A stretch of DNA of 64,000 bases, taken from positions 1,907 to 65,906 of the IMG/VR virus record IMGVR_UViG_3300006734_000007; one strand, written 5' to 3'. Of the stretch, positions 17,238 to 56,064 are shown piece after piece. Source of the DNA: a virus. Lineage: Duplodnaviria > Caudoviricetes. Every line of letters starts with the position of its first letter. The stretch's first letter is position 1. The notes below the pieces were generated by a model that had not been told where the DNA came from, did not search any database, and saw only the letters and a list, made by a program, of their open reading frames with translations. Made by a program: the position numbers and the translations under genes.

Positions 17238-20200
17238 TTACCTATTTATTGCACCCCAAAGATCACGAGTTGCTTGTTCTGGATCAAATAATTTATCTGC
17301 TTTAAATCCTACAATTTTATATAAAACTCTTTCTCCTTTCCAAGCACCTGCTTGTCTATAAGTTGTATATCCAGAATCTCTTTTATAAAAAGCTTTTTCT
17401 GACCCCATTAAACCTCCAGCTGTAAGAGAAACTACATTAGATAAATTTTCTACTGCTTGTGAAGAAATACTTAAATCTTTAAACATTCTTATCCATTCTC
17501 TAGGATTTTGAAAAAATCTATTTTCTACATCTGTATTAAGAGCTACTAACAAAGCTTGATTTTGCAACCATCCTCCAAAATTATAATCTTTATTTGCATC
17601 GTCAATTGTCCAAGGTCCTGGCATAGCACTACTTCTTTCTCTTATTTTTTTCCATTTATCTGGATCTTCTGGATCCCAATCAATTCCAAAAATAGTAAGC
17701 CACATCCATAACCATAGTTTTGCTTTTATAGGATCTGATATAGTTCTTCCTACTGCAAACCAATCTTCTTTAGTTGGTTTATATTGTGGATGTTCTTTAG
17801 ATATAAGTCTATGAATCATTCTAGAGCTTCTAGCCCAATACCCCATTTCAAATCTTTGCAAAGCAGGATTCCAATGTTCTTCTAAATTCTTAAAATCAAA
17901 TCTTTTTGTTTTAAAAATTCCAGATTTTTGCATTCTTCGATCAGCATAAAATCTTCTCATTAACATTTTAGGAAAGAATCTACGCATTGAAAAAATAGGC
18001 CTTGCTAATACATATTGAGATATTGCGCCTTGTTCTGCAGCTGCATAAGCTCCTTGATTAAAGTTTTGATATTCGTGTATAGCATTCTTAATCCTGTTAA
18101 ATTCAGAACCTCCTGGTGCATATTTTTTATCTATACCACTTTTAAGTTTAATATCATTTGTTTTAGGATCAATTTCCCAAGCATCAATATAATTAAGTAC
18201 TTCAACTTGATCTCCTACTTTTCTGTCTACTTTTACAGTATGCATTGCAGCAGAAAAGAATTCCATACTAGCTAAAAGTTCTAACCATTTTCTTTGAGAA
18301 GTTGTCCAACTTAATGAATAAATATCTTTAAATATATCTCGCGTTACATTATCAGAAAATTTTTCATTAAATCTACCTTGAGCAAAATCAAATAAATCTG
18401 TTAATTGAATATTTATATGATTTGGATCTCTAGTATAAACTTCTTGACTAATCAAACGCATAGTATTTAAAGCCCATGCTTCTCCTGCAAGCGCACCTTT
18501 ATAAGTAACAAGTCCAGAATTATTAAATAATGCTTCTTGTCTTAATTGAAATTGTGCACCAAAATAGTTTTTAAATCCTGACACAGGATCTAATGAAAAG
18601 AATGAATGACTAGCAGATTTTAAAATACTATTTATTAGTTTATCTGTCATGGCCCATCCTTTAGAATCTTTTTTAACTCTTCTTCCCTCCCAATTTATTT
18701 CATATAAAGCATTTACAATAGCTTGTCTATTAGACTTACCAAACTTTTTTCTATCATCATCAGTATAACCTAATGCCATTAATTGATTTGTAGTATACTT
18801 TTTTCTAAGATCATTTATCTTAGTCTCATCAAAATTATTAATAAGATCTTTTATAGCATCTGCTATAGGACTTGTATCTTTTAAAGCCTTATGTTCTAAT
18901 ATTCCTAATCTAAATTTTAATAGTGATCCAATAATATCCATAGATGTCTCATTAACATCCATTTTATATATACCACCAATTGGAATATTATTTCTTTCAA
19001 AGTTTAAATTATGTTCAGCTACTGTAAATTTAAAAGCATTATCATAATTTAAATTATCTTCAAAATCTTCTGGATTGGGTCTAAAATTATCTAAGAAGTT
19101 TTCTTTCCATCTATCAAACTTATTAAATAGTCTATTTGATTCTTTTTCTTTAGTTACTGCAATCTCATAATTGCTTGGTCTATATCTAGCTAGCTCATGC
19201 ATTAATCTTTGCGAAGGTTCATCTATATCTTCTTGCCATTTTAAATTATACTTTTTAATTATTTCTAATAACTCAAAGAATGCTTTGTCTTCTTTATTAG
19301 TAGAATTTTTTAACTTATAATAATCTTGATTGATAAACATGTTGTAAGGCATGTCTTCTGTAAACTGATCTGGATCTTTTTGATACTTAGCTTCCATTGC
19401 CTCTAAACTTTTAGGCATAAAGAAACCTCTATTATCAATATGCTCTCCAACTTTAAGTTCTATTTCTCCAGTATTTGGATCATATCCAGTCCAAAATTCA
19501 GGTTTAACTTCTCTGCGCCAAAATTGTTTTCCAGGTTGACCTATAATAGTAATATCTTTTTCAGAATACTCATCATAAATTTTAGTAGACTCATAATCTT
19601 TTGGATCAGAAGGTCTAACTATATTCCATGCGTCAATCCTTGCATACATTCTTTGAGGTGCACTACCTTTTTGATAAACTGTTGTTTCATAATGACTTGA
19701 TTCAAACCACTCTTTAAACTCTTCATCCATTTCTAAAAACTGATCTATAAATGCTGGATCTAAAAAGTCTTCTTCTTGTACTGATGTCGCAATTTTCTTA
19801 CCTTCTAAAGTTTGAATTAACACTGGTCTAATTAATCTTTGATACCAGTTTTCTGCAATTTCTGTATAATATTTAGTAGGAAGTCTTTCCTGCATATCAT
19901 CTAGTTCTTGCAAAGCTTTAAATAACTTGTTCTTTTGTATCTTGCTGATACCAAGTTTATCTGATTTAGTTTTTAAAAAATCATAATCTTCTTGTTCAAA
20001 TTCAGTTAGCCCCACTAACTTTCCATTAAAATCTCTTTCTTTCTTTTTTCTTCTGCGTAGAATATCCCAATACTCTTGCATTCTTTCCATCTCTTCACCA
20101 GTAAGACCCATTAAATTCATTACTGCTGCTTTAGAAGATTCTTTTAATTCATGAAGTCTTTTAATCTCAGCAAGCTGTTCTTCTGTCATATCATCACCTT

Positions 20201-23200
20201 TAGGGTGACCATCATCATCACGTCTTCCTGTTAAATTTTTATTGATTTCTTTTACTATTAATGCAAGCTCATTAGAAGTTTCAAATTCAGAAGCCAAAGT
20301 AGGATCTTCAGCTAAAACATCTGCTCTTTGTTTTGCAAGATCTTCAAATACTTGTTGAATAACCTGTAAGATTCTAGCTCTATCTGTATACCAAGATTCT
20401 TTAGGTATCTGTCTTGTATTAAGATCTACCCACATTTGCATTCTTTCATTAAGCTCTTCATAAAACTCTTCAGGTTTTGCTTTTTGATCAAATCCTTCTT
20501 CTGTCATTTCTAAAATAACTTTAGATTTTACAGAATTATAAGCTGTTGCAAATGCTCCCGGTATAGGGTTGTATTCGTAATAGTTTTTATTTTTTTCTCT
20601 ATTTTCTACAAGCACTTCTGCAATGGCCATATTAAGATCATCTTTGTCTCTACCAAAGTCATCTTTAAAACTAAAGAGCTTACTATACTCATTCCATAGC
20701 GCATCTATTCTTTCATAGTTTTGATGTGTTTTAAATGGATCTGGTAATGCTGGAGTTAATTGAGCAATCTCATCTAAAATTTCTTGAGTTTTTTCATAAG
20801 CCATTAATCCTACATTCTCAATCTTACCATTTACTTCTCTTGTAACATCCATTAACTCTTTCTGAAGATCATAAATCTCATCTACATATTTTCTATTAAA
20901 AAATAAAGAAGTTATTTGTTCTTTTTTCTTAATAGCATCTAAATATGCTTTTTCAGTATCTGGATTTTTTGTTGCGTACCAAGCTTCTTTAGCTTTCTTT
21001 TCTTCTATTTGAAGTTTAAGTATATAAGCTTTTGCTCCAATATGAGGATTTAATAAAGTTCTTGCTTCATAATCTTCATAATTACCATATTCATTAACAT
21101 ATCCTATATTATCATTAAATAATAATTTATCTGCAAGAGTTTGATAACGTGCACCATTAATTCCTAATTCTTTTAAATAAGGATTTATTTCTTGCATAAA
21201 TTCATTTTTATCTTTAAGAGCTTGCGAATGAATAGTATTTCGTGCATTTTTTAAAGTTGCAGCTAAAGTTCCTACAATAGGATCTGATTGACCAATAAAG
21301 TTTGTAACCCATCTATCAAATATACCATTAACGTCTTCTGTTAAAGCTCCAGCTAATAATAACTTAACCTTATCTGGGTTTACAATTCTACGATCTCTAA
21401 GTTGTTTTTCTCTTTTTATTGCTTCTTCATAATACTTTGCATTTTCAGGATTTTCTTTTATCCTTTCTTCATATTCTTTTTTTCTTTTTTCATATTGCTC
21501 ATTAGCCATTTGATTCATTGGCTCCATAAAATCTGCTACATAATCTCCTACATATTCAGCATTGATCTGCTGTATAACAGATTTCATATCTTTAATATTA
21601 TTTTGAGCAGTAAATAATATTTGAATAGTAGGATTAGTATTTGATATTGTTTCATTTGCAAATGCAGACTTTAAATCTTCAATAGCTTGATCAATATACT
21701 CAGACCAAAACTGTTGAAACTTCTTATACTCCATTACTTTAGTTATAGTAGATGCAGTATCAGGATTTTTAGCCAACAGTTTAAGATGTTTTAATGACTG
21801 ATCAGTTAACTCACGTAATTGTAATAAAGTATCTAAAAGAGCTTTTGTTTTTGCTCTAAAAATTTCAAGCTCGCTTTTTGTAATCTTACCATCATCTTGT
21901 GCTCTTACAAGTTTAGAACTTGTCCAAGGTCTAATACTAATAGCCATTTCATGTAAATAATTTCTATTATGAGGATTAGCCATTGGAGCAATAATTTGTT
22001 CATAAAGCTCTGGATCAGATTTTTTTAATGAGTTTAAAAAATTTAATTGTTTTTGTATTGCATTGTAATGTTTATCAATTGATTCTTGCAATTTGATTTT
22101 ATCATTACGATAAGCTTTTGTAATAGTATCTGCATACTGAGCAAGATCATCACTATAAGCAACAATATCTTCCATGCCTACACTAGTAACCGGAGCATCA
22201 AACTTATTTCCTTTTTTTAGCATGAATGCTAATTCTTCTATAGTAGTCTTTGGTGATAATTTACTTACATCTGTTTTAAAGATCTTTCTTAATAACTGTT
22301 TAATATAAAACCAAATCTTTTTAATAAATCTATTGAACTCAGGAGTAAGCTGTGCATCATCCATGAAATATTTTTCATTTAGAACTCTTACCATTGCTTC
22401 TTCCAAAACTATATCTGAAATATCACCTTTAGGAATTTCTAAAGCGGCCCATTCCATGTCAACAGGATTATTAGGATTTCTACCTTCTTCCTGCTCAATC
22501 ATTATTTCTTCTACAAGATCTCTTCCTTCTTTTGTACTAAGAAGTTCCTGCACTAAATTATTATATAGATCCGAATTGTTTTCTTTAATTGATCTAATTA
22601 AAGGGTGAGATATTTCGTGCACTGCTGTTTTTGCAGTTATATTATTATCAACAAAATAAATTTGATCATTAAAATAAAATGCTGCTTGTCCTGACCAAGG
22701 ATTTTCAGAATACTTAGTCATTTCTGTTGCTTGTTCAGCAGTAATAAAGTTTTCATCTGTAATATCTCTACCTACTTGAGAAACTAAGGCCTTAACTTGA
22801 TTTAAACTTAACAGTCTGTTTTTCTTATCTAATATATCACTAGCTTGTTCAGGATTAACTCCTTTAGAAAATTTAGATTTAGAATTTAATATTTGAACTC
22901 CTTCATTTTTAGAAGACTTTTTAATCATTGCTTGAAGATCTGCAGCTATAGGTTCAAAAGTCATCAATCTAAAACCTTTATTTTTAAATAGATATTTAGT
23001 ACCTTCTGTAACATAAGGTATAAATAGTATATGGTCATTCATGTCTTTAGCACGGCCCATTTTAATTTTAGCTTCATAAATCTGTTTCCAGCTATAATAA
23101 GTGTCGTCAAATCTTTGAGGATAATTTCCAGGTTTAGTTCTTAAAAAAAGATCTAATACATATCTTTTTTTTCTTGGTAATCCTGTATCCTTATCAACTT

Positions 23201-24956
23201 CCATTTCTGTAGGATGCTCTATATAACCCGTTATAGTTACATAATCTTGAGTTTTCTTTGCATTACCCATGAAAGCATTTTCATAAACAAAATCCGGAAA
23301 TACTTCTTTAACTTTTTGATACCAGCTTTGTTTATTTAAAAGTTTTTCAAACTCTTTAGCAAACTTAGGCCCTTTTCTTTTGTTTTCTAATTTAAGACCC
23401 GGCCCTTCAAGAAAATCTAAAATCTCTTGTTTGTTTTCTTCAGCTTCAAAAACTTCTAAAGGAATAATACCATCAATATCATGTAAAGATTCTGACATGG
23501 ATCTTAATAAAAATCCATATCGTCTAATTACTTGAGATCCACTTAACTTGTAAAGGCTTTGCAATTGCTTACCTTTCTCTTCAGTAAATCCAAAACCTTC
23601 TAATCCAAATAAAGTAGCAATAATTTGTGCAGCAAAAGGATCAGATTCTAAAGTTTCTTCATAGAATTTTTGTTCTAATCTTTCCCCTTGTACATTATAA
23701 AACTCACCATTTATATTAAAAGCTTGCTGCATTATCTTACTATAATCTTTCTTATATACATCATCAGCAATACTATTTGCTATATCATAAAGATCTTGTT
23801 GAGAAACTTTAGCAAAAGGTATATTGCCTAATAACCCTTGCATAATGATCTTATTATAAAACCAGTTCCATATTTTCTTAAAAATATTTTTTACAAATCT
23901 TGGTGATTCTTTCCAACCAAATCTTTCAAAATAATCTTTATTAATGGTTTCATTTTTAATTTTAGGTCCTTTGTACTCTGTTTGATAACCATACTCTAAA
24001 GCTTCAGCTATAAAATGATATATTACTTGTTTATGAGCCCAATAATTAAAAGGTTTATCTTTAAATATAAGATTCTTTATAGTTTTTTTAGCACTACTCC
24101 AAATTAAGTTATTTGCAATTGGACCTACTTCATATACTTGTAAAGCAAGTCTTACAAGTTCTCCTTCTTTTTCATATTCAACACCAAGATCTTCTGCATC
24201 ACCTATAGGATTTTTATCATCTCTAAACTTATCAAATTCTTTACTGTTATAGTAATCATATAGTGTTTGATAAGCATCCCACTTATCTATATTTTTAAAT
24301 ATATCTATACTTAGTTTTGTTTTTTTACCAAGCATTTCATATACTATGGCTGCAACTTGTAATGTAAATCTTCCAGTATCTATAGTGCTATGCAAACCTA
24401 GATACTTATTAATCATATCAAATGCAGCAATAGGATTATTATCATCATATAGATTGTCTAATATGTTATCTGCATTTTCATTAACATCAATATTTAAACC
24501 TTTTAGAAAATCAATTAGAGCTCCTCTTAGTTTTTCATTATATTCTGCATGTTTTTGCGCACCTAAACTAAGCTCTTCATTCATTTTGTTTACAGAATCT
24601 ATACCTTTGGATTCTAAACCCATTGCATAATTCTGCATAAACTTTAACATAGGATCACTATAAACAGGCTCATAATTTTCATCAAGCTCAATCTGTACAG
24701 TATATGCTAATTCATTATTTATTCTTGGTTCTAATTTTTTAATTTTACCTTCAGATAAAGCAACAAAATCTCCCCATGATTTTCTAAATTCAGATGTATA
24801 AAACCGGGCATATTGTCTTAATGCTCTTTCATCTGTTATACCAGGATGAGCTTCTTTAATACTATTAAATAAATTAGAACGCTTTCCATTAGGCGCTGTT
24901 ACATATTCAATTTGATTAGTTGTCTGATTTCTTACTACTTGACAATTTAAAGCCAT
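17238..24956 (-). CDS. giant virion-associated/ejected polyvalent protein (2572 aa), RNAP-cluster partner
   Basis: Next to the RNAP gene; zincin HEISH at ~22605-22619, NTase-like segment, long helical body, hydrophobic C-terminal segments. Confidence 0.75.
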   Translation of the reverse strand: MALNCQVVRNQTTNQIEYVTAPNGKRSNLFNSIKEAHPGITDERALRQYARFYTSEFRKSWGDFVALSEGKIKKLEPRINNELAYTVQIELDENYEPVYSDPMLKFMQNYAMGLESKGIDSVNKMNEELSLGAQKHAEYNEKLRGALIDFLKGLNIDVNENADNILDNLYDDNNPIAAFDMINKYLGLHSTIDTGRFTLQVAAIVYEMLGKKTKLSIDIFKNIDKWDAYQTLYDYYNSKEFDKFRDDKNPIGDAEDLGVEYEKEGELVRLALQVYEVGPIANNLIWSSAKKTIKNLIFKDKPFNYWAHKQVIYHFIAEALEYGYQTEYKGPKIKNETINKDYFERFGWKESPRFVKNIFKKIWNWFYNKIIMQGLLGNIPFAKVSQQDLYDIANSIADDVYKKDYSKIMQQAFNINGEFYNVQGERLEQKFYEETLESDPFAAQIIATLFGLEGFGFTEEKGKQLQSLYKLSGSQVIRRYGFLLRSMSESLHDIDGIIPLEVFEAEENKQEILDFLEGPGLKLENKRKGPKFAKEFEKLLNKQSWYQKVKEVFPDFVYENAFMGNAKKTQDYVTITGYIEHPTEMEVDKDTGLPRKKRYVLDLFLRTKPGNYPQRFDDTYYSWKQIYEAKIKMGRAKDMNDHILFIPYVTEGTKYLFKNKGFRLMTFEPIAADLQAMIKKSSKNEGVQILNSKSKFSKGVNPEQASDILDKKNRLLSLNQVKALVSQVGRDITDENFITAEQATEMTKYSENPWSGQAAFYFNDQIYFVDNNITAKTAVHEISHPLIRSIKENNSDLYNNLVQELLSTKEGRDLVEEIMIEQEEGRNPNNPVDMEWAALEIPKGDISDIVLEEAMVRVLNEKYFMDDAQLTPEFNRFIKKIWFYIKQLLRKIFKTDVSKLSPKTTIEELAFMLKKGNKFDAPVTSVGMEDIVAYSDDLAQYADTITKAYRNDKIKLQESIDKHYNAIQKQLNFLNSLKKSDPELYEQIIAPMANPHNRNYLHEMAISIRPWTSSKLVRAQDDGKITKSELEIFRAKTKALLDTLLQLRELTDQSLKHLKLLAKNPDTASTITKVMEYKKFQQFWSEYIDQAIEDLKSAFANETISNTNPTIQILFTAQNNIKDMKSVIQQINAEYVGDYVADFMEPMNQMANEQYEKRKKEYEERIKENPENAKYYEEAIKREKQLRDRRIVNPDKVKLLLAGALTEDVNGIFDRWVTNFIGQSDPIVGTLAATLKNARNTIHSQALKDKNEFMQEINPYLKELGINGARYQTLADKLLFNDNIGYVNEYGNYEDYEARTLLNPHIGAKAYILKLQIEEKKAKEAWYATKNPDTEKAYLDAIKKKEQITSLFFNRKYVDEIYDLQKELMDVTREVNGKIENVGLMAYEKTQEILDEIAQLTPALPDPFKTHQNYERIDALWNEYSKLFSFKDDFGRDKDDLNMAIAEVLVENREKNKNYYEYNPIPGAFATAYNSVKSKVILEMTEEGFDQKAKPEEFYEELNERMQMWVDLNTRQIPKESWYTDRARILQVIQQVFEDLAKQRADVLAEDPTLASEFETSNELALIVKEINKNLTGRRDDDGHPKGDDMTEEQLAEIKRLHELKESSKAAVMNLMGLTGEEMERMQEYWDILRRRKKKERDFNGKLVGLTEFEQEDYDFLKTKSDKLGISKIQKNKLFKALQELDDMQERLPTKYYTEIAENWYQRLIRPVLIQTLEGKKIATSVQEEDFLDPAFIDQFLEMDEEFKEWFESSHYETTVYQKGSAPQRMYARIDAWNIVRPSDPKDYESTKIYDEYSEKDITIIGQPGKQFWRREVKPEFWTGYDPNTGEIELKVGEHIDNRGFFMPKSLEAMEAKYQKDPDQFTEDMPYNMFINQDYYKLKNSTNKEDKAFFELLEIIKKYNLKWQEDIDEPSQRLMHELARYRPSNYEIAVTKEKESNRLFNKFDRWKENFLDNFRPNPEDFEDNLNYDNAFKFTVAEHNLNFERNNIPIGGIYKMDVNETSMDIIGSLLKFRLGILEHKALKDTSPIADAIKDLINNFDETKINDLRKKYTTNQLMALGYTDDDRKKFGKSNRQAIVNALYEINWEGRRVKKDSKGWAMTDKLINSILKSASHSFFSLDPVSGFKNYFGAQFQLRQEALFNNSGLVTYKGALAGEAWALNTMRLISQEVYTRDPNHINIQLTDLFDFAQGRFNEKFSDNVTRDIFKDIYSLSWTTSQRKWLELLASMEFFSAAMHTVKVDRKVGDQVEVLNYIDAWEIDPKTNDIKLKSGIDKKYAPGGSEFNRIKNAIHEYQNFNQGAYAAAEQGAISQYVLARPIFSMRRFFPKMLMRRFYADRRMQKSGIFKTKRFDFKNLEEHWNPALQRFEMGYWARSSRMIHRLISKEHPQYKPTKEDWFAVGRTISDPIKAKLWLWMWLTIFGIDWDPEDPDKWKKIRERSSAMPGPWTIDDANKDYNFGGWLQNQALLVALNTDVENRFFQNPREWIRMFKDLSISSQAVENLSNVVSLTAGGLMGSEKAFYKRDSGYTTYRQAGAWKGERVLYKIVGFKADKLFDPEQATRDLWGAINR

Positions 24957-24960
24957 AATT

Positions 24961-27900
24961 TTAACATTTATCTATTTGTTCAAGAACACTATCAATTTCA
25001 TTTTCCATATTTACTGCCCATTGTTTATCTGAAAAATCTTGATAAACTTCAATTAAATCACTTAAGCTAATATACTGAGAATTAGGATTAACATAAATAA
25101 AACTGTCAAATAATTGAGTAGACAATTCATCAAATAAATTAGAAACTAAAAATTGACCTGAGTCATTTATTCTAGATGCATTTAGATGATCCATTGCGTA
25201 TCCTACACTTAAAAATACTATTGGCTGTTTATCATTTATTTTAATTAATTCAGTTATAGATTTACTAATAACATCTTTAATTACATCCTGTTGACCTATT
25301 AATAAATCTCCTTTAGCATTATAAACCGGCAAAACATGTACATTATTAACACCTTCTATTGTATTTCCATTTTGATCCATTGCTAAACCAGTAATTGTTC
25401 CTGGTAATACAAATACTTTGGAAGGATTGTTTTCAATAATTTGTTTAAGATTAGTAGTGTCTGACATATTTAGAATCTCTGCATCGTAAGAATCTTCAAG
25501 TGCAGTAAACAACGTGTCTACTTTTAAACTATCTACATCTATTCTAGATTCTTCTCCTGTATGGAATACTTCAAACCCGGCACCAATTTCTAATAGATAT
25601 TCTATAAACTGAGTATCTACTCCTGGCATATCACCTACAACAAATCTTGCACCACTTTCATTTGCCTCAGCAATTTGAGATCTTGTTTCTTCAGATAATG
25701 GTGTATTTTTTAATTTACCATTTCTTGCTAGCATTACTATATCTCCAAATGACTTTTGACCATTAATTCTTTCAAAACTTACTCCCGTGTAAACACCATT
25801 TTTATTTTTAATAGTATCTTTTTCATCACCAGTTTGCTCTAATGAAGTTTTAGAACTTGAATTTCTATTTAAAACATTTAATTCTACAATAGCCGCGTCA
25901 GATTTTAATCTCATGGCTTGATCTTTTTCATCACCCCATTTAGTTCCTTTACCTGTATCAGCAGCTTTTACATTAATATCTGCATCTGACCACTTATTAC
26001 TATAACCTCCTTCATATTTAAACTGATCTTGATCAATTATAGACTGCCAATCTCTTACATCATCTGTAATAAAATCTAAATTTCTATTTCTAAAATTAGC
26101 ATTATTGATTTTGTTATGTTGCCTAAATTGATTTTGAAAATCCATAAGTACTGCTAAACCTATTGGACTATCAATTTCTTTAGCTAATTTATCTGTAGAT
26201 TTTTTTAAGAATGGCAATAAGTTTTCTTTAGGCATTACTCTACCAAGAGCAAATCTATTATCTATATTCATACCTGATTGCAAGAAAGCATATATAGGAA
26301 GCATTTCAAAGAACTTAGATATTTCACGATTTTCTTGAATTCCTTGAGGACTATCATCTAATACTTTCATTACATTTGGATCAGCTAATTCTCTAAATTC
26401 AGTAATAGCTGCATCAATTTCATTATTCTCTAACTTAGTATTTCTAAATTTAATATTGTGATACTTTACATTATTTTTAGAATCTGACTCATACTGAATA
26501 GATTCTAAAATAGCATAAGTATCTAACAGATTTGGATGGTTATTTATAATTTCTTTTACACGGTGCATAACAGAGTTATCACTATTAAACAGCTGGTGCA
26601 TGTTTAGAATATTATAAAGAGCTGTATCTTTTAACCATTCTTCATATACTTGACGTACTTGTCTTTTCTTTTTAGCATCAATACTCTCATCAGTTCTAGA
26701 ATCAATATCCTTAATACGATCATATCTTTTTGTAAACTCATTAGTCTTAATAAATTCAGCTAAAGGATTATTTAATCTTAATAATTCTCTTTCTATTGTA
26801 AACTTAACAAACTGATTATAACCTCTTGTATTTCTTTTAAATGTATTAGAATCTAATTCAGCTAATTGCAAAGTTTGATAATTTATATCTTCTAATATTT
26901 TTTCTGCTACTGCTGTTTTATCTTTATCTAATTTTATTTTTTTAGTTTTATCTGTAAAATTTTCTATACGACTTAATAAAACATTCAAAGGTTGTTGATC
27001 AATACTTTGAGCAAATGCTAAAGATTGGAATTGTTTTTTAAGAACATCTTTATCAATTAAGATCTCACCTGAATCTGGATTTACAATTACTCCGCGATTA
27101 GTTCTAGCATCTTTTAATAAATTTGAACTAATATTAACTTCATATCCTTTATATCCTTCTTTAATGTCTGTATCTAATACATCTTTTTGAAGAGCATATA
27201 CAACTAGATCATTTAAAAATTTATTTGCAAATCTTTCTTCAGTACCAAATTCAGATTTAATTTTAGATAGATTTTTTATATTTCCTGTTATACCAAGAAT
27301 ATATTTTAAAATTTTCTCAGATGTTCTTAATGGAAATACATTTTTCCAAAGATCTAATTGAAAACGTTGAATATCAAATGAACCAATTGGTGATTCATTT
27401 AAAATAGCATCTATAATATATGAAGGAAATACAGTATTTGTATATAAGTCTTCTTGCTTTTCAATTCTTTTAGCTGCCTCGTATAATGTTACAGATTTAG
27501 TTGTATCATAGTTTAAAGTAGTTTTTAATTTTTTGTAATCTTGTCCTATTTCTTCTATTTCTAAATAATGCAAAAATAAATCTCTTGCATCCATCATTGC
27601 TGCATTACTACTTGTAGGATCTGTTTTAACAACTTTATCCAAAGTTTTTGCATCTATAGATTTACCTTTAAGTTTTTTCTTTAATCTATTATTCATATCA
27701 TGAATTATAGACATATCTCGATTCTTAACAGCTTGAGTACTATTAATTACATTATAATCTAGAAGCATTTCTTTTCTAATTTGTGTTCTAAGATTCATGT
27801 AATCAATTTCTTTAGATTTATCAGTTTTAAGTCTGTTTTTATTATTTGCTTTAGAAAGAGCACTTTGAGCTTTTCTTAATCTTTGTCTATACTCTTCAAC

Positions 27901-33900: not shown

Positions 33901-36900
33901 ATCTTCATCTCGTAGAACTCTCATATTATTATATAAGATACCTACATTTCTAACTACTACTGGATCAATAACTATATCATTAGGATTAACTCCTGTAAAT
34001 AACCATTTTAAAAAATTAAGAATTCTTCTAAATATAGAAGCTGTTTGAGGTCGGTTAGTAAGTACTTTCTTACCATCACTCAACATGTATGTTCTGTAAT
34101 CTTCTGCTAAATATTCATCTGCCGCTCTCCATCTGTCATAATTTTTAAGCGCATTTATATCTTTATTATTAGCTTTTGCATATTCTTCCAAGATCTTAGG
34201 ACCCAATGCAGTAGATAGTAATTCTTCATACATCTGCACTTTCTCATCTTGTGTCAAATACAATTGTGTAAATCCGTGATAAGCTTCATGATATAGATCT
34301 GTTTCATCAGCTCCTTTATATAATTTAATACCATTTTTACTCCAACTTGCAAAAGCATTAGAGTTTACAATACTAAATAAATTATCAAAATCTAGTGGTG
34401 AAGTTTTACTAATAGGACTAGATTTAAACCAAGCCATAGCATTTTTTCTTTTCTTTCTATAACCTGGCTTTAGTCTTTCCCATCTAATTCTTTTTAGCTT
34501 AGATTTAAATATTGAGTCATCTTCTGGGTCAAAATTAAAATCTAAATCATCTTCATCAGGTAACTTTTTATTTATATCTGAAGAGTTATTTGGATCAGTA
34601 TAACCGTTAAGTTTATTATTTAAATCATCTAACTTAAGTTCTAAAGATGCAATATACTCATCAAGTTCTGAAAGATCTTCATCAGTAATATCTTCATTAG
34701 ACTCTACTTTTTTTCTTAATCTAAATACAATAGGTAATAGACTCATCAAAAGGGCCCCAGGAGCACCTGGAGTTTCAGCTGGTGTTTCTAATGGAGTTTC
34801 AGAAACTATATTACCTTCTGCAGGAATAATAAGTGCACCACCGGTCCATCCCTCTGGGTTAAATCCTGCCCATTGTTTTGAATCAATAACACCTTCTTTT
34901 GCTTTTGGTTTAGCACTAAATGATCCTACGTCATGATAACCAATAGTAAGATCTCCAGGTTTAAGATTATAAGCTTTTATAATTTCTAAACCTTCCCACT
35001 CAATATTATTTATAGTACCGGCAAAATCTCTAATAATTGTATTACCGTGTACATCATTAAAAATAAATACTACAGATCCTCCGCTAAATCTACTATATCC
35101 ATTTCTATCTTTAAAGATTAAATATGTACCTGAACCATCTTTTTTAACTACTTCTTTAATAGTAGATTTAAATCCTTTAGGTGTTTGTGTTTTACTGAAT
35201 TCAATATCACTAAACTTCATCTGTCTCAATGCAGATACAACAATATCTGAATCAACAAGATCTTTAGCTCTTTTGTATTTTAGATTTACACTACCATCAG
35301 GATTTCTTGTAAATGCCGGAACATAGTCATTGTTTTCTTTAGCTTTTCTTAAGTAAACTTTATTATTTTCATGAGAATATTCTTTATCTGCTGCAACACT
35401 TGCATCTAATAAAAAATGTCCTACACCAATAACACCATTTACTTTAATTCCTTCACCTGGCAAATCTTTTTTAACAGGTGCTGGTATATATCTAAAACCT
35501 TCTGCGTTATCCCACTGACTTCTGTATGACATCAAACTATCTGAAGGATTATAGCTATCAGGCACTGTTCCAATTAGTTGGAAGAATCTATCTACTTTAG
35601 GTGTTTCTTCAATTACAGGAGCAACTTGCTCTTCAACAATTAATGCAGCTTCTTTAATATCAATAAGACCTTTTTTATCTAAATATCTTTTAGCCCACTG
35701 CGCTTGTGTATCAGGTAATAAAGTTTCTACAGAATTTTCTAAACTAAAACTTAAAGATCCATCATTATTAAAACTCCATGATGTTGTTCCTACAGTTACA
35801 GCTCCTGCAATAATTAAAGCCATTATACCTTTAAGAACTTTTTTAATTGCTTTTGCTAAAGCTCCTGGAAAATCTGGTAAAGTATTACCATGGCGTTTTA
35901 TATAATCTTTTACATTTTCAAATAAAATTTGTTTTATTTCTTCATTTGTTCCTTCTACTAAATCTTGATCTGCTTCAATTTCTTTTTTTAATTCTTTAAG
36001 ATCTTCTTCATCAATTACATCATCAATAACCTCTGCAATTTTTTCATCAGTTATTGGTTCTTCAGTAGTTTCTTCTTTAGAAGACTGCTGCTTTCTTTTT
36101 CTTAAATCTTCTCTTAGTTTTTTAGCTTCTTCTAATTCACGTTTTGTTTTATCTATTTCCTCCTGAATTGAGGTTTGTTCTTCGTTTGTATTTCCCGGAT
36201 TAACTTTTGTGCCCCCTTGCCCCTCAACAACACCACTCTCAGGACCAGTCTTAGAATCATCTAACTCTAATCTTGCAACTAAATCAGCTTTATTACCGCT
36301 TACTTTTAATCCTCTCTTAGATAACTCAGCTTTTAATTCAGCTTTAGTTAATGCACTATAACCTGTAGCTTGTGGTTGACCTATCATTTGATAAATAGGA
36401 TTTCCCTCTTTGCCAGGAAGTGTAGATTTCCCTATTATTTTTGCTTCACCACTTTTTACAAGCCTTTTCCATAATGCTTGTGATGCAGGAGTTTGATCAC
36501 TATCTGATTTTAATGGAGATAATCCTTTTGAAATTCTGTCTGAATTTATTTTTCTATATAACTCTGTAGCAATACCTTTACCTCTTAATCCAGGATGTAT
36601 TAATACATTTGATACAGAACCAGCTGGATATAATTTTAATTCTTTTCTAGCAATAATTAAAGCTCCTAATATTTGTCCGTCATAATGAATAACATGTATA
36701 TCTGAATTACTTGTTATACTATTATTTGGATCTAGAAGTTCTCCTGATACTACTTCTAAACCTAATTTTGATTCTTTAGATTCTACACTATTAATAATAT
36801 CTGAAATATCTGATGATTCATCTAAACCAGATTCTCCTAATTTTTTAAGTTCTGAGACTAAATCTCCATCAAATTTTTTACTTTCTATTCTAGTATCAGC

Positions 36901-39471: not shown

Positions 39472-39472
39472 C

Positions 39473-42400
39473 TTAACATTTCTTTTTAGCTTGTTTACCT
39501 AGATCTTTTAAGGCATCAAGAGGATTATCATACTTATCTGCATACTCTTTCATTTGCTCTGGAGAAAGTTTAATATCAACATTCTCATCTGAAGTATCCT
39601 GTTCTTCAGTAGTAACAGGTTCTACAGGTGCATCTTCTTTCATAGGTACAAGGTTTGTATAAAATTTATCAAGGGTTTCAGTCATTTCTTTATTAGTTTC
39701 TTGGACCTTAAATTTAATAAATTTGGTTTTATTAGTTATCCTTTTAGTTAAGATTTGTATGAGGCCATGTTCTTTATGCATCATAGATATAATCTTATTT
39801 TTAGGAGCTTTATTTATTATATCTTTAATAGAAACAGCAGTCGTCCCTTTTAGTTCTGTTTTTCTTTTAGCAATTAAGTTTGCAACAGCTCCGTCATTAG
39901 TATATCTAGTAACCGGTAAATCTTTGGTTTCTTGAAATATATAATCTTCTATTGCTAACAGTGCCTGTAAAGAATCTGCATTTTTAATTTGATCACCAAA
40001 CTCCTCCATCAAATCTATTGGTTCTATAGCAGTATCTTCTTCTTCAATAAATTCAAATTCAGTTAGAACTAATTGCTTTTCAGGAGATTCTATAAAGTTG
40101 TTTAAAATATTAGGTACTAGATAATTAGTACCATCTATTTGCATAATAGTACTTCCTTTAACTGTATCACCTTCTTCTAGATCTGTTTGTAATCTAAGAA
40201 CTTCAAATAAAAGTTGCATTGATTGTGCTCTATAACTTAAATCTTCATTTATTTGAGATAAGATTGTATTACCATCTTCATCTACTGGATTCAATGTCTT
40301 AAGACTATTTATAAGTTCATCAAAATTTAGACTAGGTTCTAAAACAAAAGTATAGTCATCACCTTGATACCTTACAATTTGCTGAGGGTTTTCTAAATAA
40401 TCTGGAAATAATCTCTCTACTACATCTGGTGTTAATAATATAATTCCTTCATATAGATCTTCTAATAATTCGTCACCTAAAAATAGATCTGTATCTTTAA
40501 TAGGAATTGGTTCAATATCTGATTCTTCTTCTTCTTTTACTTCTGTGCCAAAAATACCTGGAGAAGCTGTTTCAGTTACAGTAGATGGTGTTAGTATTTC
40601 ATTTATAAAAGGCATGTAAGGAAAGTTAGATCCTTGCTGAATTAATCCAGCATAACTAACTTTTGTAATTTGACGATTTTCTTTATCTAAATTAAGATCA
40701 AAAGATGCAATGTTTATATTAGCTCTTACTCCTGTAATGTTCTCAAGCATATTTTTATAACCGGATTGCTGATAACCATGTTGCTCTCTTTTACTAATTC
40801 TTTCGCCAACTATTTTAGCCATGTAACTTGGTTCAGTATAACCTTTGGTTAAGACTATTTCACCTGTACTTCCAACTATTCTATTAATTGCAGGATTTTT
40901 AGAAGATTTAATATCTATTATTTCATATCTCTTTTTAACAGGATCCCAAAATAATAAGTCAATTTCACCACCCACTGGTTGTCCAGTTGGAGGATTTTTA
41001 TCAAATACTAATGGGCCTTCCATTACAAACTCCCATCCCAATGCTTTAATTTCTTCTGCAAAAGCTTCAAATGCTTTTACTAATTGTTTTTTAGCTGTAT
41101 CTGTTAGATCTAGCATTGTTGGTCCTATAGGAATAACAGGTTCTGTAGCAAGTTTAGTTTTTTCAATAGATGTAATATCTGACTTGCCATCAAAAACACC
41201 AACAGTTCCTTTTATAACATCATTAAGAGGTTGAATCTTATCTCGATTATTTTTAATTTCTTCATTACTTTGAAAAGGTTTAACTCCTTCCGCCGTGCTA
41301 AGAGTAATATGAGGAAATTCATTTTTAGATAATGGATTATCTACAAGTAATACATCTACTTTATCTGTAGTAAGTCTTCCAACTACTCTAATTTCCATTT
41401 CTTGACCGATAGGTAGATCTGAAACATCTGAAGGTTTAAATTCAATTGTAGAATGATGAGAAAATAAATTTGCAAGAGCTTGTCCGTAAGCTGCAACTAA
41501 CTCATCAGTATTAAAAAAGATTCCACTATATACTACAGGACCTTGATAACTAGTAGTAGTTTCAGGAACTCCTTCAAAAAACTCTTTACCAAATGCATCT
41601 AATGTGTTACCTGCAAATGCATTATCTTCATACTCAGTTAGATCAAACTCAGATTCTTTTATTTGTACAACTGATCCATCTTCTAACTTAACTTCCCAAA
41701 CTGGTTCTGCAGTTTGATCTTCTAAATCTGCTAATTCATCTCCTAAAATACCATCTTGACCAGTTGCTTTAATCCTAACTTTATTTCCTGTTCTAGGATC
41801 CATTTCCATACCAATAATAGATGTCATACTTGTACTACGGACCCACTTTCCATTTACTTTAATAAAGTAACCGTGATCTGTAGTTTTAACACCAAACTCT
41901 AAAGCTTCTTCATCAGTCATACTACTGATCTGCTTTATTTCAGTACCCTGAACTCTCTTTAGTTTTTTATGTCCCTCAGATTTTGAAACACCTGAAAAAG
42001 GCATTGATATATCTTCATCAGTAGGTTTTTCTTCTGTAGGATCAATATCTTCTTTCTTTTTTCTGCCTCCTTTTTTTTGTCCTTTTCTTTGTTTAACTTG
42101 TTCATTATGATCATCAATTAAAAGTAAAACATCATCTGGTCTACTTTCAATCCATTCATCTATGTTAGCAAATCTATCAGGATTATTTTTCTGAAACTTA
42201 GCAAACAATAATTCTGCCTGCTGTTGTATAGTATCTGGCCAGGTTAATCTATTGCTTAAACCATCACTATCTAGCAGAGTTAATATTTCATCTACCGTTT
42301 TTTTCTTTTTTTGTTTTCTTTTTGCTTCTCGTTCTTGCTTTTCTCTTTCTAAAGAAGCTTCTCTATTTGCTTTATCAAAAGCTTCAAAGGTTTCAAACCC

Positions 42401-45400
42401 AGACTCTGCAGCAAAATCTTCTATATATGCTGAAACTAATTTAGCAGGCTTTGAATACCTCTGATCTTCTTTACGGATCTTAACAAAAGTACCATCATCT
42501 TTTTTTAGTATAAAATACTCTGGTAAATCTAATTCATCAAATACAGATCTTAATCCTTCATCATCTAGGAACATATTAAGTTTAGATAGTTCAAATATTA
42601 ATTGACTACTTTTAACTTTTTCTAAAGCTGCATTATAATGTTTTTTTGATAATTCTTGATTAGCTTGATATTGTTGAGCTCTAACCATTTCTCTTCTTGC
42701 ATGCCATTCAACATAAGTATCAGGATTAGATAAGTATCTTAAAACTGCTCCATACATTTTAGCATCATTATCAAGTTCAATTGAATCTTTATACATTTTA
42801 AAGATCTCATCTACTTGATCTTGACTTATACGGTATTTTCTCATTTTACCAGAAGGCATGTTTAATGACTCTCCTACTAAATAATTAATATATTTATTGA
42901 ATGCTCCGTATAATCCTTTTAGTGCTTTCTTTTGTTGTTTTTCTTGCTCTTCTGTATATCTTGCAGTTTTACCAATTTCTTTATCAAAGTAAGAATCTTC
43001 TTCAGCAATAGTAGCCTGATAACCTTCTACTGCTTCTCGTAAACTATTTAAAAGCTCTTTCTTTTTTTCTAATCTTTTTTTATCAGCCTTTTCTTCTTTA
43101 GATAATACTGCTCCGGCTTTTTCTTTATCATTAATTGCAATTAACTCTTGAGACAAAATAGTATCTTCTTGTCTTATATCTTCTAAAGATAAAATATTAC
43201 GAATATCATTTTCTTCAACAACTTCTAAAAAATTAAAATTGTCAATAATATTTTTATGTATTTTAAGTCTTCTATTAACTGCTTCATTAAATGTTGTATT
43301 ACCAAGTGCAACAGTTTTTATAAAATCTTTATGTGCTTGATGTTTAATTTGTCTATCAATGTATTCTGGATTTAAATAAGGCATTCCGTTTTTATCAAGA
43401 AGCATGGTAGGTACTGCGTTAGGATCATATGGTGCACCCCAAGTGTCATAAGCTTTTTCTATATTATAAACTGCATCAGAAATTCTTTTCTTCATAGATT
43501 TTATAGAATCCCTAGCTTCTTCAATAGTATCATGGTTTGTACCCATGGCTTCATTGAATTCTTCTACTGTAAAATCTTCTTCTAAGATCTCATCTAAGTA
43601 GTTTAAGAATTCTTCATGTCCACCTTTTTCATATAGATTAAACATGTGTTCATTAACTGCTTCATTTCTAGCATCAATAGCTCCTTTTTCATCACCTTCT
43701 AATGTTGCTTCAATAGCTTCATTTGCTAAATTTTTTACTGTAGTTGCATGTTCTATTGGTGAATTAAAAAATCTAAATGGATCAGCTGTATAAGCATTGT
43801 AGGCATCTACATCTTCTTGAGCTTTTTTCTCCATACGAGTTTTATACTCTTCATAAGTTTCATTATTAAAAGTTCTATCAGTATAATTACGTAACATTTT
43901 AATAGGTGTAGTTACTGCGCTTATTACTCCACTAGCCATTCCTCCCATTAAAAATCCTGAAGCAAATATTTCAAAACCTTGCGGGCTTGTATATTTTTTT
44001 AAATTACTACCAAGATGAGAAATAAAGTCTCCAAACTCTGGGCTTTTATATCTTTCACCTTTCTCATATAACTTAAAGTAATGATCTAAATATCCTTCAG
44101 CTGCAGTATCACCTACAATTTCTTGATACAATTCTTGACCACCTTCTAACAATCCTCCTTGTGCTAAAGAATACTTTCCAAATCTATTAAAAGATTTAGC
44201 TATACCTGATTTCCATTTTTTTGGTGTAACAATAGTAGTTCCTATATCTGATAATTTTTGTCTTGCAGTTTTTTTAGCTACAACTTTAGCTTTAGAAAAA
44301 GGTGTAGCAACAGCTTTATATAATGGATTTTCAGAGATTAATTTTTTAGTAACTCCTGTATTCATACCTACTCTCATTGCCAAAGGCTTTAAGAATGCAG
44401 TTCTTAATATCAAACCGTTTGTTGCTAAAATAATAGGAACGTTTGCAAAAGCTGTTGATTGTGCAGCTTCATGTGAAGTAGTTATTAAATCATCAAGTGC
44501 TTCTTGTGTAATAGGTTTACCAGACTTTTCTAATTCTTCAAGTCCTTCTTTCATTACTCTATTTTGAACTAAACCTGCTTCTAATTGGCCTTCTGCCAAT
44601 GCTGCAGTTGCAACTTTAGTATCAAAATATAAAGCGGGAAAAGTCTTATGATTGTATCTTAATATATCATATGGAGTTCTAACATTCTTAGCAAATGCTT
44701 TAGCAGTACTAGGTGCAACAAGTTTACCAGGTTTTTCAATAACCCATTTTGTTCCATCCCATACTTTTTGATTTACATTTTGCCAAATCTTTCTAAGTTT
44801 ATTTGGTTGTCTAAATTGACTTAAATAAGACTCATAACCTATTGTGCTTAATTTACCGGCCTTATCTAATTTAGGTAATGTTTTTAATCCTTTAGCAGCA
44901 CCCGTAAATACTAACTTAGGATTTTTTCGTATATCATCTACTATAGATGTGCCCATTCCGGCCATCATACCTAGAGATAATCCTACTTGCATAAAAGTAT
45001 TACCTAAAAACGGTGCAGCAAAATTAGACCACTTATTATTTTTTTGAGACATTCTCATTTTAGTGATCTCTTCAAATCTTTCTGCATTCTTTGCTTGAGA
45101 CCAATCAGAAAGTTGTAAATCAGCATCTAAATAATTATTCCAACCAAGTACAGCAACATCTTTAAATCCACCAACAGATCTCATAAAATCACCAAATGTA
45201 CTTCCGTATGTATTATAAATAGCATCATTATCTCTAAAAGGACTATAACCAAGCTTGTCATAATCCATATGTAATTTATATCTTTCTAAAGGTTGTATTG
45301 TTTTACTATCTAGAAGATTTATACTTCTAGTTGACATGCCTCCAAAAATATTATCATACTCTTGACCCCATTCAATTCCAGCATTGTTAAAATTATTTAA

Positions 45401-45664
45401 TCTGTCTAATGCAGAATTACCTGTAGGTAAATTATAAGTTGAAAAAGTTTTTGGTAAAAAATTTTGAGGATCAATATCTTTAAATCCAAAATGTCCATCT
45501 TGCATTGCTTTTTGAAGCAACATCATATCAGAAACAGTACCACGATTATTAATGATATTATTAATAGATTGTCCTGCAACAACATTTAAATCTGGTGTTT
45601 TATTTAAATTAGATTCAGAACTTTTAAAAACATCAGGTTGAGGATTTACATTAGGATCTGCCAT
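39473..45664 (-). CDS. giant ejected protein (2063 aa) with membrane segments, PD-(D/E)xK nuclease and 2H phosphoesterase domains
   Basis: Gly-rich TM-like segments (VGLSLGMMAGMG, FASGFLMGGMASGVI), EGGQELYQ, HHSTI...PHITL, GEIDLL...IIDIKS...QQSGY. Confidence 0.8.
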   Translation of the reverse strand: MADPNVNPQPDVFKSSESNLNKTPDLNVVAGQSINNIINNRGTVSDMMLLQKAMQDGHFGFKDIDPQNFLPKTFSTYNLPTGNSALDRLNNFNNAGIEWGQEYDNIFGGMSTRSINLLDSKTIQPLERYKLHMDYDKLGYSPFRDNDAIYNTYGSTFGDFMRSVGGFKDVAVLGWNNYLDADLQLSDWSQAKNAERFEEITKMRMSQKNNKWSNFAAPFLGNTFMQVGLSLGMMAGMGTSIVDDIRKNPKLVFTGAAKGLKTLPKLDKAGKLSTIGYESYLSQFRQPNKLRKIWQNVNQKVWDGTKWVIEKPGKLVAPSTAKAFAKNVRTPYDILRYNHKTFPALYFDTKVATAALAEGQLEAGLVQNRVMKEGLEELEKSGKPITQEALDDLITTSHEAAQSTAFANVPIILATNGLILRTAFLKPLAMRVGMNTGVTKKLISENPLYKAVATPFSKAKVVAKKTARQKLSDIGTTIVTPKKWKSGIAKSFNRFGKYSLAQGGLLEGGQELYQEIVGDTAAEGYLDHYFKLYEKGERYKSPEFGDFISHLGSNLKKYTSPQGFEIFASGFLMGGMASGVISAVTTPIKMLRNYTDRTFNNETYEEYKTRMEKKAQEDVDAYNAYTADPFRFFNSPIEHATTVKNLANEAIEATLEGDEKGAIDARNEAVNEHMFNLYEKGGHEEFLNYLDEILEEDFTVEEFNEAMGTNHDTIEEARDSIKSMKKRISDAVYNIEKAYDTWGAPYDPNAVPTMLLDKNGMPYLNPEYIDRQIKHQAHKDFIKTVALGNTTFNEAVNRRLKIHKNIIDNFNFLEVVEENDIRNILSLEDIRQEDTILSQELIAINDKEKAGAVLSKEEKADKKRLEKKKELLNSLREAVEGYQATIAEEDSYFDKEIGKTARYTEEQEKQQKKALKGLYGAFNKYINYLVGESLNMPSGKMRKYRISQDQVDEIFKMYKDSIELDNDAKMYGAVLRYLSNPDTYVEWHARREMVRAQQYQANQELSKKHYNAALEKVKSSQLIFELSKLNMFLDDEGLRSVFDELDLPEYFILKKDDGTFVKIRKEDQRYSKPAKLVSAYIEDFAAESGFETFEAFDKANREASLEREKQEREAKRKQKKKKTVDEILTLLDSDGLSNRLTWPDTIQQQAELLFAKFQKNNPDRFANIDEWIESRPDDVLLLIDDHNEQVKQRKGQKKGGRKKKEDIDPTEEKPTDEDISMPFSGVSKSEGHKKLKRVQGTEIKQISSMTDEEALEFGVKTTDHGYFIKVNGKWVRSTSMTSIIGMEMDPRTGNKVRIKATGQDGILGDELADLEDQTAEPVWEVKLEDGSVVQIKESEFDLTEYEDNAFAGNTLDAFGKEFFEGVPETTTSYQGPVVYSGIFFNTDELVAAYGQALANLFSHHSTIEFKPSDVSDLPIGQEMEIRVVGRLTTDKVDVLLVDNPLSKNEFPHITLSTAEGVKPFQSNEEIKNNRDKIQPLNDVIKGTVGVFDGKSDITSIEKTKLATEPVIPIGPTMLDLTDTAKKQLVKAFEAFAEEIKALGWEFVMEGPLVFDKNPPTGQPVGGEIDLLFWDPVKKRYEIIDIKSSKNPAINRIVGSTGEIVLTKGYTEPSYMAKIVGERISKREQHGYQQSGYKNMLENITGVRANINIASFDLNLDKENRQITKVSYAGLIQQGSNFPYMPFINEILTPSTVTETASPGIFGTEVKEEEESDIEPIPIKDTDLFLGDELLEDLYEGIILLTPDVVERLFPDYLENPQQIVRYQGDDYTFVLEPSLNFDELINSLKTLNPVDEDGNTILSQINEDLSYRAQSMQLLFEVLRLQTDLEEGDTVKGSTIMQIDGTNYLVPNILNNFIESPEKQLVLTEFEFIEEEDTAIEPIDLMEEFGDQIKNADSLQALLAIEDYIFQETKDLPVTRYTNDGAVANLIAKRKTELKGTTAVSIKDIINKAPKNKIISMMHKEHGLIQILTKRITNKTKFIKFKVQETNKEMTETLDKFYTNLVPMKEDAPVEPVTTEEQDTSDENVDIKLSPEQMKEYADKYDNPLDALKDLGKQAKKKC

Positions 45665-49658: not shown

Positions 49659-49690
49659 TTTAAACTTATAAAGTTTAAAGTTTAAAGTTT
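49659..49690 (-). promoter_or_regulatory. intergenic palindrome / conserved motif, copy 1
   Basis: TTTAAACTT-ATA-AAGTTTAAA inverted repeat plus a tandem AAGTTTA run; similar to 56039-56064. Confidence 0.45.
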
Positions 49691-56038: not shown

Positions 56039-56064
56039 AAAACCTATAAAGTTTAGAGGTTTAG
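56039..56064 (-). promoter_or_regulatory. intergenic conserved motif, copy 2
   Basis: AAAACCTATAAAGTTTAGAGGTTTAG shares AAACYTATAAAGTTTARA with 49662-49679; followed on the - strand by TTTTGTATATTATA. Confidence 0.45.

Follow-up and report, generated by a model that had tools for sequence, protein, structure and literature searches.

A probable cargo block of three giant proteins with exchangeable domains and terminal cysteines in a divergent crAss-like phage

Here we describe three adjacent giant genes on the minus strand (positions 17238 to 45664) of a 64,000-nucleotide window, which covers bases 1907-65906 of the 65.9-kb IMG/VR virus record IMGVR_UViG_3300006734_000007 and, judged by homology, is a fragment of a divergent crAss-like phage. 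The genes probably constitute the cargo block of this phage: three scaffold giants bearing exchangeable payload domains, the crAss version of the known polyvalent virion proteins. The most novel and most testable result is a terminal-cysteine rule: the three proteins are almost completely purged of cysteine, and the few cysteines that remain lie at protein ends. The crAss-like phages rank with the most abundant phages known, and understanding of their giant "transcription block" proteins is poor.

The gene block and its crAss-like relationships

Beyond 17.2 kb, very large open reading frames (ORFs) follow one another on the minus strand; all coordinates given below for the block refer to this strand. 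The block comprises P0003 (giant 1, the first of the block; 39473..45664, 2063 aa), P0001 (giant 2; 24961..39471, 4836 aa), a zincin and predicted two-barrel-type virion RNA polymerase (RNAP) giant, and P0002 (giant 3; 17238..24956, 2572 aa), a zincin-bearing protein of the gp65 type, with spacers of 1 and 4 nt between the genes. The three adjacent giants described in a first-pass annotation, made by a model from the sequence alone, match the ORF list exactly, and its statement that the RNAP giant is about twice the size of phi14:2 gp66 agrees with our comparison (4836 versus 2180 aa, 2.2-fold). This length lies at the top of the size range of RNAP giants without standing alone: those of related loci reach 4821 aa, and virion RNAP genes of up to ~6000 aa are cited in a review (PMC10136315).

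Residues 2400-4400 of P0001 matched annotated crAssphage RNAP subunits around the motif DFDID (tblastn; 28.5% identity over 123 aa, E = 4e-9). This motif, at P0001 3423-3427, is the DxDxD metal-binding motif of gp66-type RNAPs. Furthermore, a profile of five RNAP giants detected phi14:2 g066 (E = 1.9e-50) and crAss001 gp50 (E = 1.4e-26), and a P0002-family profile detected phi14:2 g065 (E = 3.4e-18) and crAss001 gp49 (E = 1.6e-15). The tblastn match and the g066 profile match bear out the crAss-like lineage and the gp66-type RNAP that had been proposed for the middle giant. A PHROGs scan of the three giants returned no families, and whole-giant phmmer searches against PDB chains returned no matches for any of the three.

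A constant core with variable ends

A search for related loci with one 2001-aa RNAP segment gave 10 pattern matches, none of which was confirmed; an alignment-driven scan of IMG/VR then succeeded, yielding 166 relatives, from which 80 loci were kept (locus counts below refer to these 80). The order P0003-type gene, RNAP giant, P0002-type gene recurs among them, with the RNAP giant present in 80/80, the P0002-type gene in 70, and the P0003-type gene in 62; the missing ones fall at locus ends.

Pangenomic comparison of these loci revealed a constant core and variable regions at fixed ends. P0003-type proteins (1127-3032 aa in relatives) share a scaffold at about residues 126-1050 (42515..45289; blastp map against 62 relatives), in which a hydrophobicity scan marked one strongly hydrophobic segment at 566, followed by a variable C-tail of 247-2035 aa. 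RNAP giants (3089-4821 aa) are conserved over residues 1672-4470 (26062..34458), a core common to the 80 loci that holds the zincin motif HEAYH at 1728 and the RNAP motif at 3423, and again over their last ~170 residues (4667-4836; 24964..25473), a C-terminal domain that ends in Cys4836 and is common to the closest relative, P0004. The part N-terminal to the zincin and a C-tail of 120-1390 aa vary. P0002-type proteins (1092-3088 aa) are conserved from residue 737 to the end (737-2572; 17241..22748; blastp map over 70 relatives), with the zincin motif HEISH at 780, and begin with a variable N-head of 124-1351 aa.

Residues H1728, E1729, H1732, D3423, D3425, and D3427 of P0001 are invariant in all five aligned giants, as are H780, E781, and H784 of P0002 in its family alignment, and an acidic residue downstream of HExxH is invariant in both zincin families; no Pfam model matched the zincin regions of P0001 and P0002. 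The first-pass annotation had counted the zincins among discrete inserts. Their motifs stand, but because HExxH is invariant in the family alignments, the zincins belong to the core and not to the payload.

Pfam scans, run per member on non-redundant variable regions, recovered domains that differ between relatives. Among 58 RNAP C-tails, we detected SF1 helicase in nine, 2OG-Fe(II) oxygenase (AlkB-like) in five, NADAR in two, and AAA_33, cpYpsA, and Phage_30_3 in one each. The commonest recognizable domain of these C-tails, DUF7831 (14/58), is not in the window giant. The P0002 heads (n = 36) included AAA_33 and ART-PolyVal once each, and the P0003 tails (53 of 58 scanned, five being left out for size) included PDDEXK_1 five times, His_Phos_1 twice, and ParB_N and LysM once each.

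At the level of homology, modules are shown to move between different giants: the 2H domain of P0003 is 69% identical to the N-head of P0011, a P0002-type protein, and a unit composed of the nucleotidyltransferase (NTase) module and the zincin, as in P0002, stands at the C-terminal end of P0006, the RNAP giant of another phage. Relative to P0004, GNAT plus SAP (672-1204) and the unnamed alpha/beta domain (4470-4667) are indeed discrete inserts, as the first-pass annotation had described them. Collectively, the core/variable map, the differing Pfam content, and the exchange of modules support its structural proposal, in which the crAss-like giants would be scaffolds with exchangeable payloads at fixed ends.

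Cysteines confined to protein ends

Four cysteines occur among the 9471 residues of the three giants, each of them terminal, in the pattern [-C][C-C][C-]. Giant 1 has a single cysteine, its last residue, Cys2063 (codon 39476..39478); giant 2 has Cys4 (codon 39460..39462) and its last residue, Cys4836; giant 3 has Cys5 alone (codon 24942..24944). Cys5 is invariant in 52/52 sequences, as is the terminal cysteine of giant 2 (Cys4836) in 52/52.

This pattern extends across the families when cysteines within the first 8 (N) or last 8 (C) residues are counted as terminal. P0003-type proteins have an N-terminal cysteine in 0/56 and a C-terminal cysteine in 59/62 cases, with 5 internal cysteines in 119,272 aa; RNAP giants have one at the N terminus in 69/70 and at the C terminus in 73/73, with 19 internal in 287,894 aa; and P0002-type proteins have one at the N terminus in 69/70 and at the C terminus in 0/68, with 16 internal in 139,992 aa. 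The internal cysteine frequency of the three families (4e-5 to 1.1e-4) compares with 0.38% in other ORFs of the same loci, and among complete ORFs outside the block, terminal cysteines occur in 0/21 upstream and 13/94 downstream. The same pattern is found in phi14:2 (g067, Cys1797 only; g066, Cys3 and Cys2179; g065, Cys3) and in crAss001 (gp47, Cys2339 only; gp50, Cys5, Cys1334, and Cys2404; gp49, Cys5).

Gain and loss of these cysteines coincide with protein junctions. Among 14 ORFs of at least 70 aa that lie between the RNAP giant and the P0002-type gene, 11 encode proteins with cysteines at both ends and 0-1 internal, here called cars; of the remaining three, two are short ORFs and one is an apparent split gene (L074). 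In three loci (L009, L039, and L066), the car is homologous to the P0002 head, including the NTase-like module. Gene fission has therefore produced a new cysteine pair at the break, where the fused protein of the window has none. The converse is seen in P0009 and P0007, in which a P0003-type N-terminal part is fused to an RNAP giant (profile E = 1.6e-44; BLASTP E = 9e-34); they lack an N-terminal cysteine, keep the C-terminal one, and have none at the fusion junction. Large cars with cysteines at both ends and 0-1 internal lie at this position in L014 (21829-25803, 1325 aa), L022 (18406-20667, 754 aa), and L077 (18469-20685, 739 aa).

A nucleotide-level junction signal (stop/start overlap) was considered as the source of the pattern and rejected. 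The N-terminal cysteines lie anywhere between residues 3 and 8 and the C-terminal ones anywhere within the last eight residues, and the gene of the first car of crAss001, gp47, lies on the opposite strand, so that an artefact of translational coupling is excluded.

Domains carried by the window giants

In P0001, a lineage-specific insert (residues 672-1204; 35860..37458) combines GNAT (922-984), SAP (1038-1069), and a charged linker. The insert is not in P0004, and GNAT and SAP occur in 0/80 related loci. SAP, a DNA-binding motif, matched Pfam PF02037 well above its cut-off (E = 6.7e-13, 48.4 versus 23.9 bits), which upholds the first-pass call. For GNAT, four GNAT models fell on the same stretch, with Acetyltransf_1 just short of its cut-off (20.3 versus 20.7 bits) and Acetyltransf_7 at E = 1e-4, and motif A is present as RGKGIA at 963; acetyltransferase matches to the PDB (phmmer) were non-significant only (E = 0.3-0.9). 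Residues 922-984 are thus a probable GNAT domain, with the motif and the near-cut-off Pfam scores in favor of the call and the lack of a significant PDB match against it.

Next in P0001 comes an unnamed module of ~400 aa (residues 1205-1615; 34627..35859), with a hydrophobic helix at 1204-1234 ahead of it. It shares 55% identity with parts of P0006 and P0007, two giants that barely align with P0001 in their RNAP regions and in the rest of their sequence. It had no Pfam match and no tblastn match among GenBank phages, and it occurs in 0/80 loci. This module may act at the membrane or in the periplasm and may be spreading horizontally. A small insert just upstream of the catalytic motif (residues 3224-3313; 29533..29802) is not in P0004, and 5/80 loci carry it at the same site.

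Near the C terminus of P0001 lies a well-conserved alpha/beta domain (residues 4505-4649; 25525..25959) with the motifs MLARNG, FVVGDMPGVD, and YHTG, which the first-pass annotation had called SLOG-like. It matched 233 representative clusters at E ≤ 0.001 (209 at ≤ 1e-10) and occurs in 4/80 related loci. Among the 150 matches listed of these 233, identities are 34-85%, mostly 40-59%, and host proteins span 101-6868 aa, with the domain at varying positions within them. In these 150 (P0016-P0165), 51 proteins reach 2000 aa or more, and small standalone proteins occur too. As a set, the proteins are cysteine-poor (0.036% internal), and 18/27 of those of ≤300 aa end in cysteine. An AlphaFold2 (AF2) model reached a predicted local distance difference test score (pLDDT) of 84.5, with a beta-alpha-beta-alpha-beta C-terminal half. 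We found no Pfam match in 27 aligned members, no PDB profile match, and no Foldseek match at E ≤ 0.001 in PDB or BFVD; Atlas leads toward DprA or YAcAr were weak (0.77-0.82). Given these results, we treat it as an unnamed alpha/beta domain.

The variable C-tail of P0003 carries two candidate domains. A 2H (tRNA-ligase CPD-like) phosphoesterase domain at about residues 1378-1500 (41165..41533) is supported by two HxT/S motifs, HSTI at 1403 and HITL at 1452, and by an Atlas feature search (0.96; 219/256 shared features; clusters with tRNA_lig_CPD in 24-63%). The Pfam score stayed below the cut-off (tRNA_lig_CPD, 18.1 versus 23 bits, E = 0.0019), and phmmer against the PDB gave non-significant matches only; the domain occurs in 0/80 loci. 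A PD-(D/E)xK nuclease-like domain follows at about residues 1520-1700 (40565..41107; IDLL...EIIDIK), with a D..ExK motif at 1581 and a QxxxY motif read by eye. The window segment itself has no Pfam match, and the call is supported through relatives: homologous segments in L080 and L081 score above the PDDEXK_1 cut-off (25.4 and 23.9 versus 22 bits), and the window segment matches L081 at E = 5.5e-5.

In P0002, a Pol-beta-type NTase-like module (residues 430-700; 22857..23669) lies within the variable N-terminal head (1-736). Its G-S...D-x-D...D motif is invariant in 9/9 aligned sequences, and the core of the AF2 model has a pLDDT of 84-95 (whole model 64.7). All Foldseek PDB matches listed (ranks 1-50) are Pol-beta, Pol-lambda, or TdT, the best at E = 0.012, probability 0.85, and a TM score of 0.25; a profile of the alignment had no PDB match. 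The predicted NTase fold is thus weakly supported, the motif and the exclusively Pol X list favoring it and the weak E value and TM score limiting it. The module occurs in 13/80 loci, in three of them as a separate protein with cysteines at both ends. Searches of GenBank phages by tblastn with the 2H plus PD-(D/E)xK segment and with the NTase module gave no match.

Genomic context of the block

On the plus strand, positions 1-17 kb hold a replication module with a DnaB-like helicase, primase, exonuclease, family-A-type DNA polymerase, and ATPase (PHROGs). The giants share their strand with, and are contiguous to, large ORFs of the structural arm, which includes a virion structural protein (phrog_37948; 61169-63898; PHROGs). 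Two minus-strand proteins upstream of the block (49689-53333, 1214 aa; 56061-61169, 1702 aa) contain no cysteine, with 2-8 in their neighbors; they may also be extracellular or ejected.

Discussion

Our preferred reading, which we consider likely and which homology with phi14:2 and crAss001 suggests, is that the virion would carry the three giants and release them into the host before or together with the DNA. The RNAP would transcribe early genes, and the invariant zincins would probably process the giants. The variable ends (C-tail of giant 1, pre-zincin N-terminal part and C-tail of giant 2, N-head of giant 3) would deliver payloads, in the window GNAT, SAP, the unnamed alpha/beta domain, the NTase-fold module, the 2H phosphoesterase, and the PD-(D/E)xK nuclease, that act, during the first minutes after infection, on nucleic acids and proteins of host or phage. 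The payloads would be enzymatically active, and a counter-defense role may be among their functions.

The phi14:2 orthologues are virion proteins (mass spectrometry notes in the phi14:2 record). According to the available text of the respective sources, crAss001 gp47, gp49, and gp50 were detected by virion mass spectrometry (PMC10172136), and orthologues of gp65, gp66, and gp67 are present in virions, with gp65 called zincin-bearing (preprint 10.1101/2020.03.07.982082). The first-pass statement that crAss-like RNAPs are virion-delivered agrees with these reports, and ejection of the three window giants is inferred by homology. The Schitoviridae (N4-like) ejection proteins are, like the window giants, near-free of internal cysteine, a suppression that the available text of PMC11445570 ascribes to periplasm passage; the case that the three giants are ejected is therefore stronger. 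The patterns differ in that cysteine is absent altogether from the N4-like proteins described there, whereas the window family has one or two conserved, strictly terminal cysteines that track protein junctions.

Several observations weigh against this interpretation. The virus record is ~54% complete (CheckV). The P0003-core profile found nothing at E < 0.01 among phi14:2 g067-g069, crAss001 gp45-gp47, and crAssphage gp44-gp47, and because of this the equivalence of P0003 with g067/gp47 is positional only, apart from the cysteine pattern. The GNAT, 2H, and NTase calls are sub-threshold, and the SLOG assignment was not confirmed and was dropped as unproven. Most variable regions have no recognizable domain, and the P0002 heads contained just seven Pfam families, each in 1/36 members. 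PADLOC returned no families for the three giants and no similarity to defense-system proteins and therefore gives no direct support to the counter-defense role that the first-pass annotation had proposed. The bias of the payload toward nucleotide signaling that it had also suggested would be speculative; the domains of the relatives resemble more a repertoire for repairing or modifying nucleic acids and for modifying proteins.

What the payloads do, and where, admits other readings. Instead of neutralizing defenses, they might work for the phage itself, in early transcription, the handling of DNA, and the repair of RNA; SAP, for example, would anchor the RNAP on DNA, and RNA ends would be repaired by the 2H, NTase, and kinase domains. 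The helicases, AlkB-like oxygenases, kinases, and NADAR found in relatives are typical of nucleic-acid maintenance, and the PADLOC result fits as well; we still hold this reading to be somewhat unlikely, because the domains occur rarely and patchily (GNAT, SAP, and 2H in 0/80 loci), as expected rather of accessory conflict functions, and ART-PolyVal in one relative is of a host-modifying type. The two readings also overlap, since RNA repair would counter anticodon nucleases. A neutral origin of the extra segments, as passengers inserted selfishly or by accident into giants that tolerate them and of no function to the phage, would account for their patchy distribution and for the many variable regions without a recognizable domain. 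We judge it very unlikely in view of the intact catalytic motifs (GS..DxD..D in 9/9, two HxT/S, D..ExK), the mostly 40-59% identity of the unnamed domain among the 150 matches listed, and the obedience of the inserts to the cysteine purge (4 cysteines in 9471 aa). The least probable alternative, to which we give hardly any credence, is that the giants are not virion cargo here and are expressed and act only within the infected cell; their virion location is indeed read from orthologues, but those orthologues are virion proteins, the genes lie in the structural/late arm beside phrog_37948, and the extreme cysteine purging resembles that of ejected N4-like proteins.

The terminal cysteines, with their coupled gain and loss at junctions, are best explained by a link from the C terminus of one giant to the N terminus of the next, most simply a disulfide formed in the released virion. 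We tentatively propose, at somewhat less than even confidence, that the cargo giants of Crassvirales are joined head to tail in this way into a covalent "cargo train." The conserved C-terminal cysteine of one giant would bond with the N-terminal cysteine (position 3-8) of the next, in the order giant 1, RNAP giant, optional cars, giant 3, and this train would pass through the tail in that order and be uncoupled by cytoplasmic reduction. Internal cysteines would have been purged so that only inter-giant links can form, and payloads could be added either as fused domains or as separate cars with cysteines at both ends. The crAss001 virion tail has inter-subunit disulfides (crAss001 atlas). Complex prediction for the P0001 C-terminal domain with the P0002 N terminus lends weak support (median ipSAE 0.32 versus 0.00 for the best control), on a mark reached by 58/80 solved complexes and 2/110 mismatches and passed at ≤ 0.60 in 7/80 and in both passing mismatches; runs agreed in at least 38% of contacts, and partner pLDDT was at least 61.

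Alternatively, the terminal cysteines might bind metal or act as signals for docking or packaging (e.g., to the portal or scaffold), or the two ends of the RNAP giant might join each other, with giants 1 and 3 forming a separate pair. In favor of such readings, the disulfide is itself an inferred bond for which the complex prediction is weak, and the terminal cysteine of the small standalone homologues of the unnamed domain (18/27) could equally mark a packaging tag. Against them, fission of the P0002 head (L009, L039, L066) gives cysteines at both new ends, the P0003-type/RNAP fusions P0009 and P0007 lack a junction cysteine, and the polarity of [-C][C-C][C-] matches the car order, even in crAss001, where gp47 is on the other strand. 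Taken jointly, we find these alternatives less persuasive than the cargo train and rather unlikely.

A full-text literature search, covering text and not figures or supplements, found no mention of the terminal-cysteine pattern in print; in their available text, the crAss001 atlas does not use the word cysteine, and the phi14:2 preprint uses neither cysteine nor disulfide. In p-crAssphage (L082, BK010471.1), the locus at 30192-31459 is annotated in the record as a putative thioredoxin and a truncated thioredoxin, which could bear on redox handling of cysteine-linked cargo.

Among known systems, the closest are phi14:2 gp67/gp66/gp65 and crAss001 gp47/gp50/gp49, whose RNAP and zincin giants are profile-detectable homologues of those in the window, where the RNAP giant has DFDID; P0003 has no detectable similarity to g067/gp47. 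The window giants are 1.15-2.2 times longer than those of phi14:2 (2063 versus 1797, 4836 versus 2180, and 2572 versus 1421 aa), carry the added GNAT, SAP, unnamed, NTase-like, 2H, and PD-(D/E)xK domains, and, unlike phi14:2 and crAss001, also have a zincin motif fused to the RNAP giant. In p-crAssphage (BK010471.1), the zincin-fused gp45 and the RNAP fusion gp44 are adjacent, as in the window, and the C-terminal Cys1956 of gp45 followed by Cys3 of gp44 retains the C/N pair. The purge is weaker there (8 cysteines in gp44, 3 in gp45), gp44 lacks a C-terminal cysteine, and gene order and domain partition differ from the window.

Polyvalent proteins, known from phages and conjugative elements and including fusions of N4-like virion RNAPs with MPTase, ART, lysozyme, and PBECR, likewise combine unrelated enzymatic domains in one virion-associated polypeptide, with architectures that vary between relatives and a zincin-type MPTase as recurrent core (Iyer et al. 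2017, PMC5512222, available text). The window giants parallel this with their invariant HExxH core, and ART-PolyVal and ParB_N occur in the window's relatives. The carrier RNAP of the window is of the two-barrel gp66 type by homology, in contrast to the T7-like N4 virion RNAP of polyvalent proteins, and, unlike in the polyvalent proteins described, its payload is divided among three giants in synteny, each with variable regions at fixed ends. The available text of PMC5512222 does not mention crAss.

Some of these domain calls may already be present in the domain maps of the transcription block by Yutin et al. 2021 and in the Nature version of Drobysheva et al. With the payload platform, the principle of polyvalent proteins reaches a second type of virion RNA polymerase, unrelated to the first, and a catalogue of candidate early-acting effectors becomes available. 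Should the terminal-cysteine rule arise from covalent coupling, it would account for the way in which several 200-550 kDa proteins keep their order while being drawn through a narrow tail, and freedom from cysteine except at the termini would be a simple sequence signature for cargo proteins.

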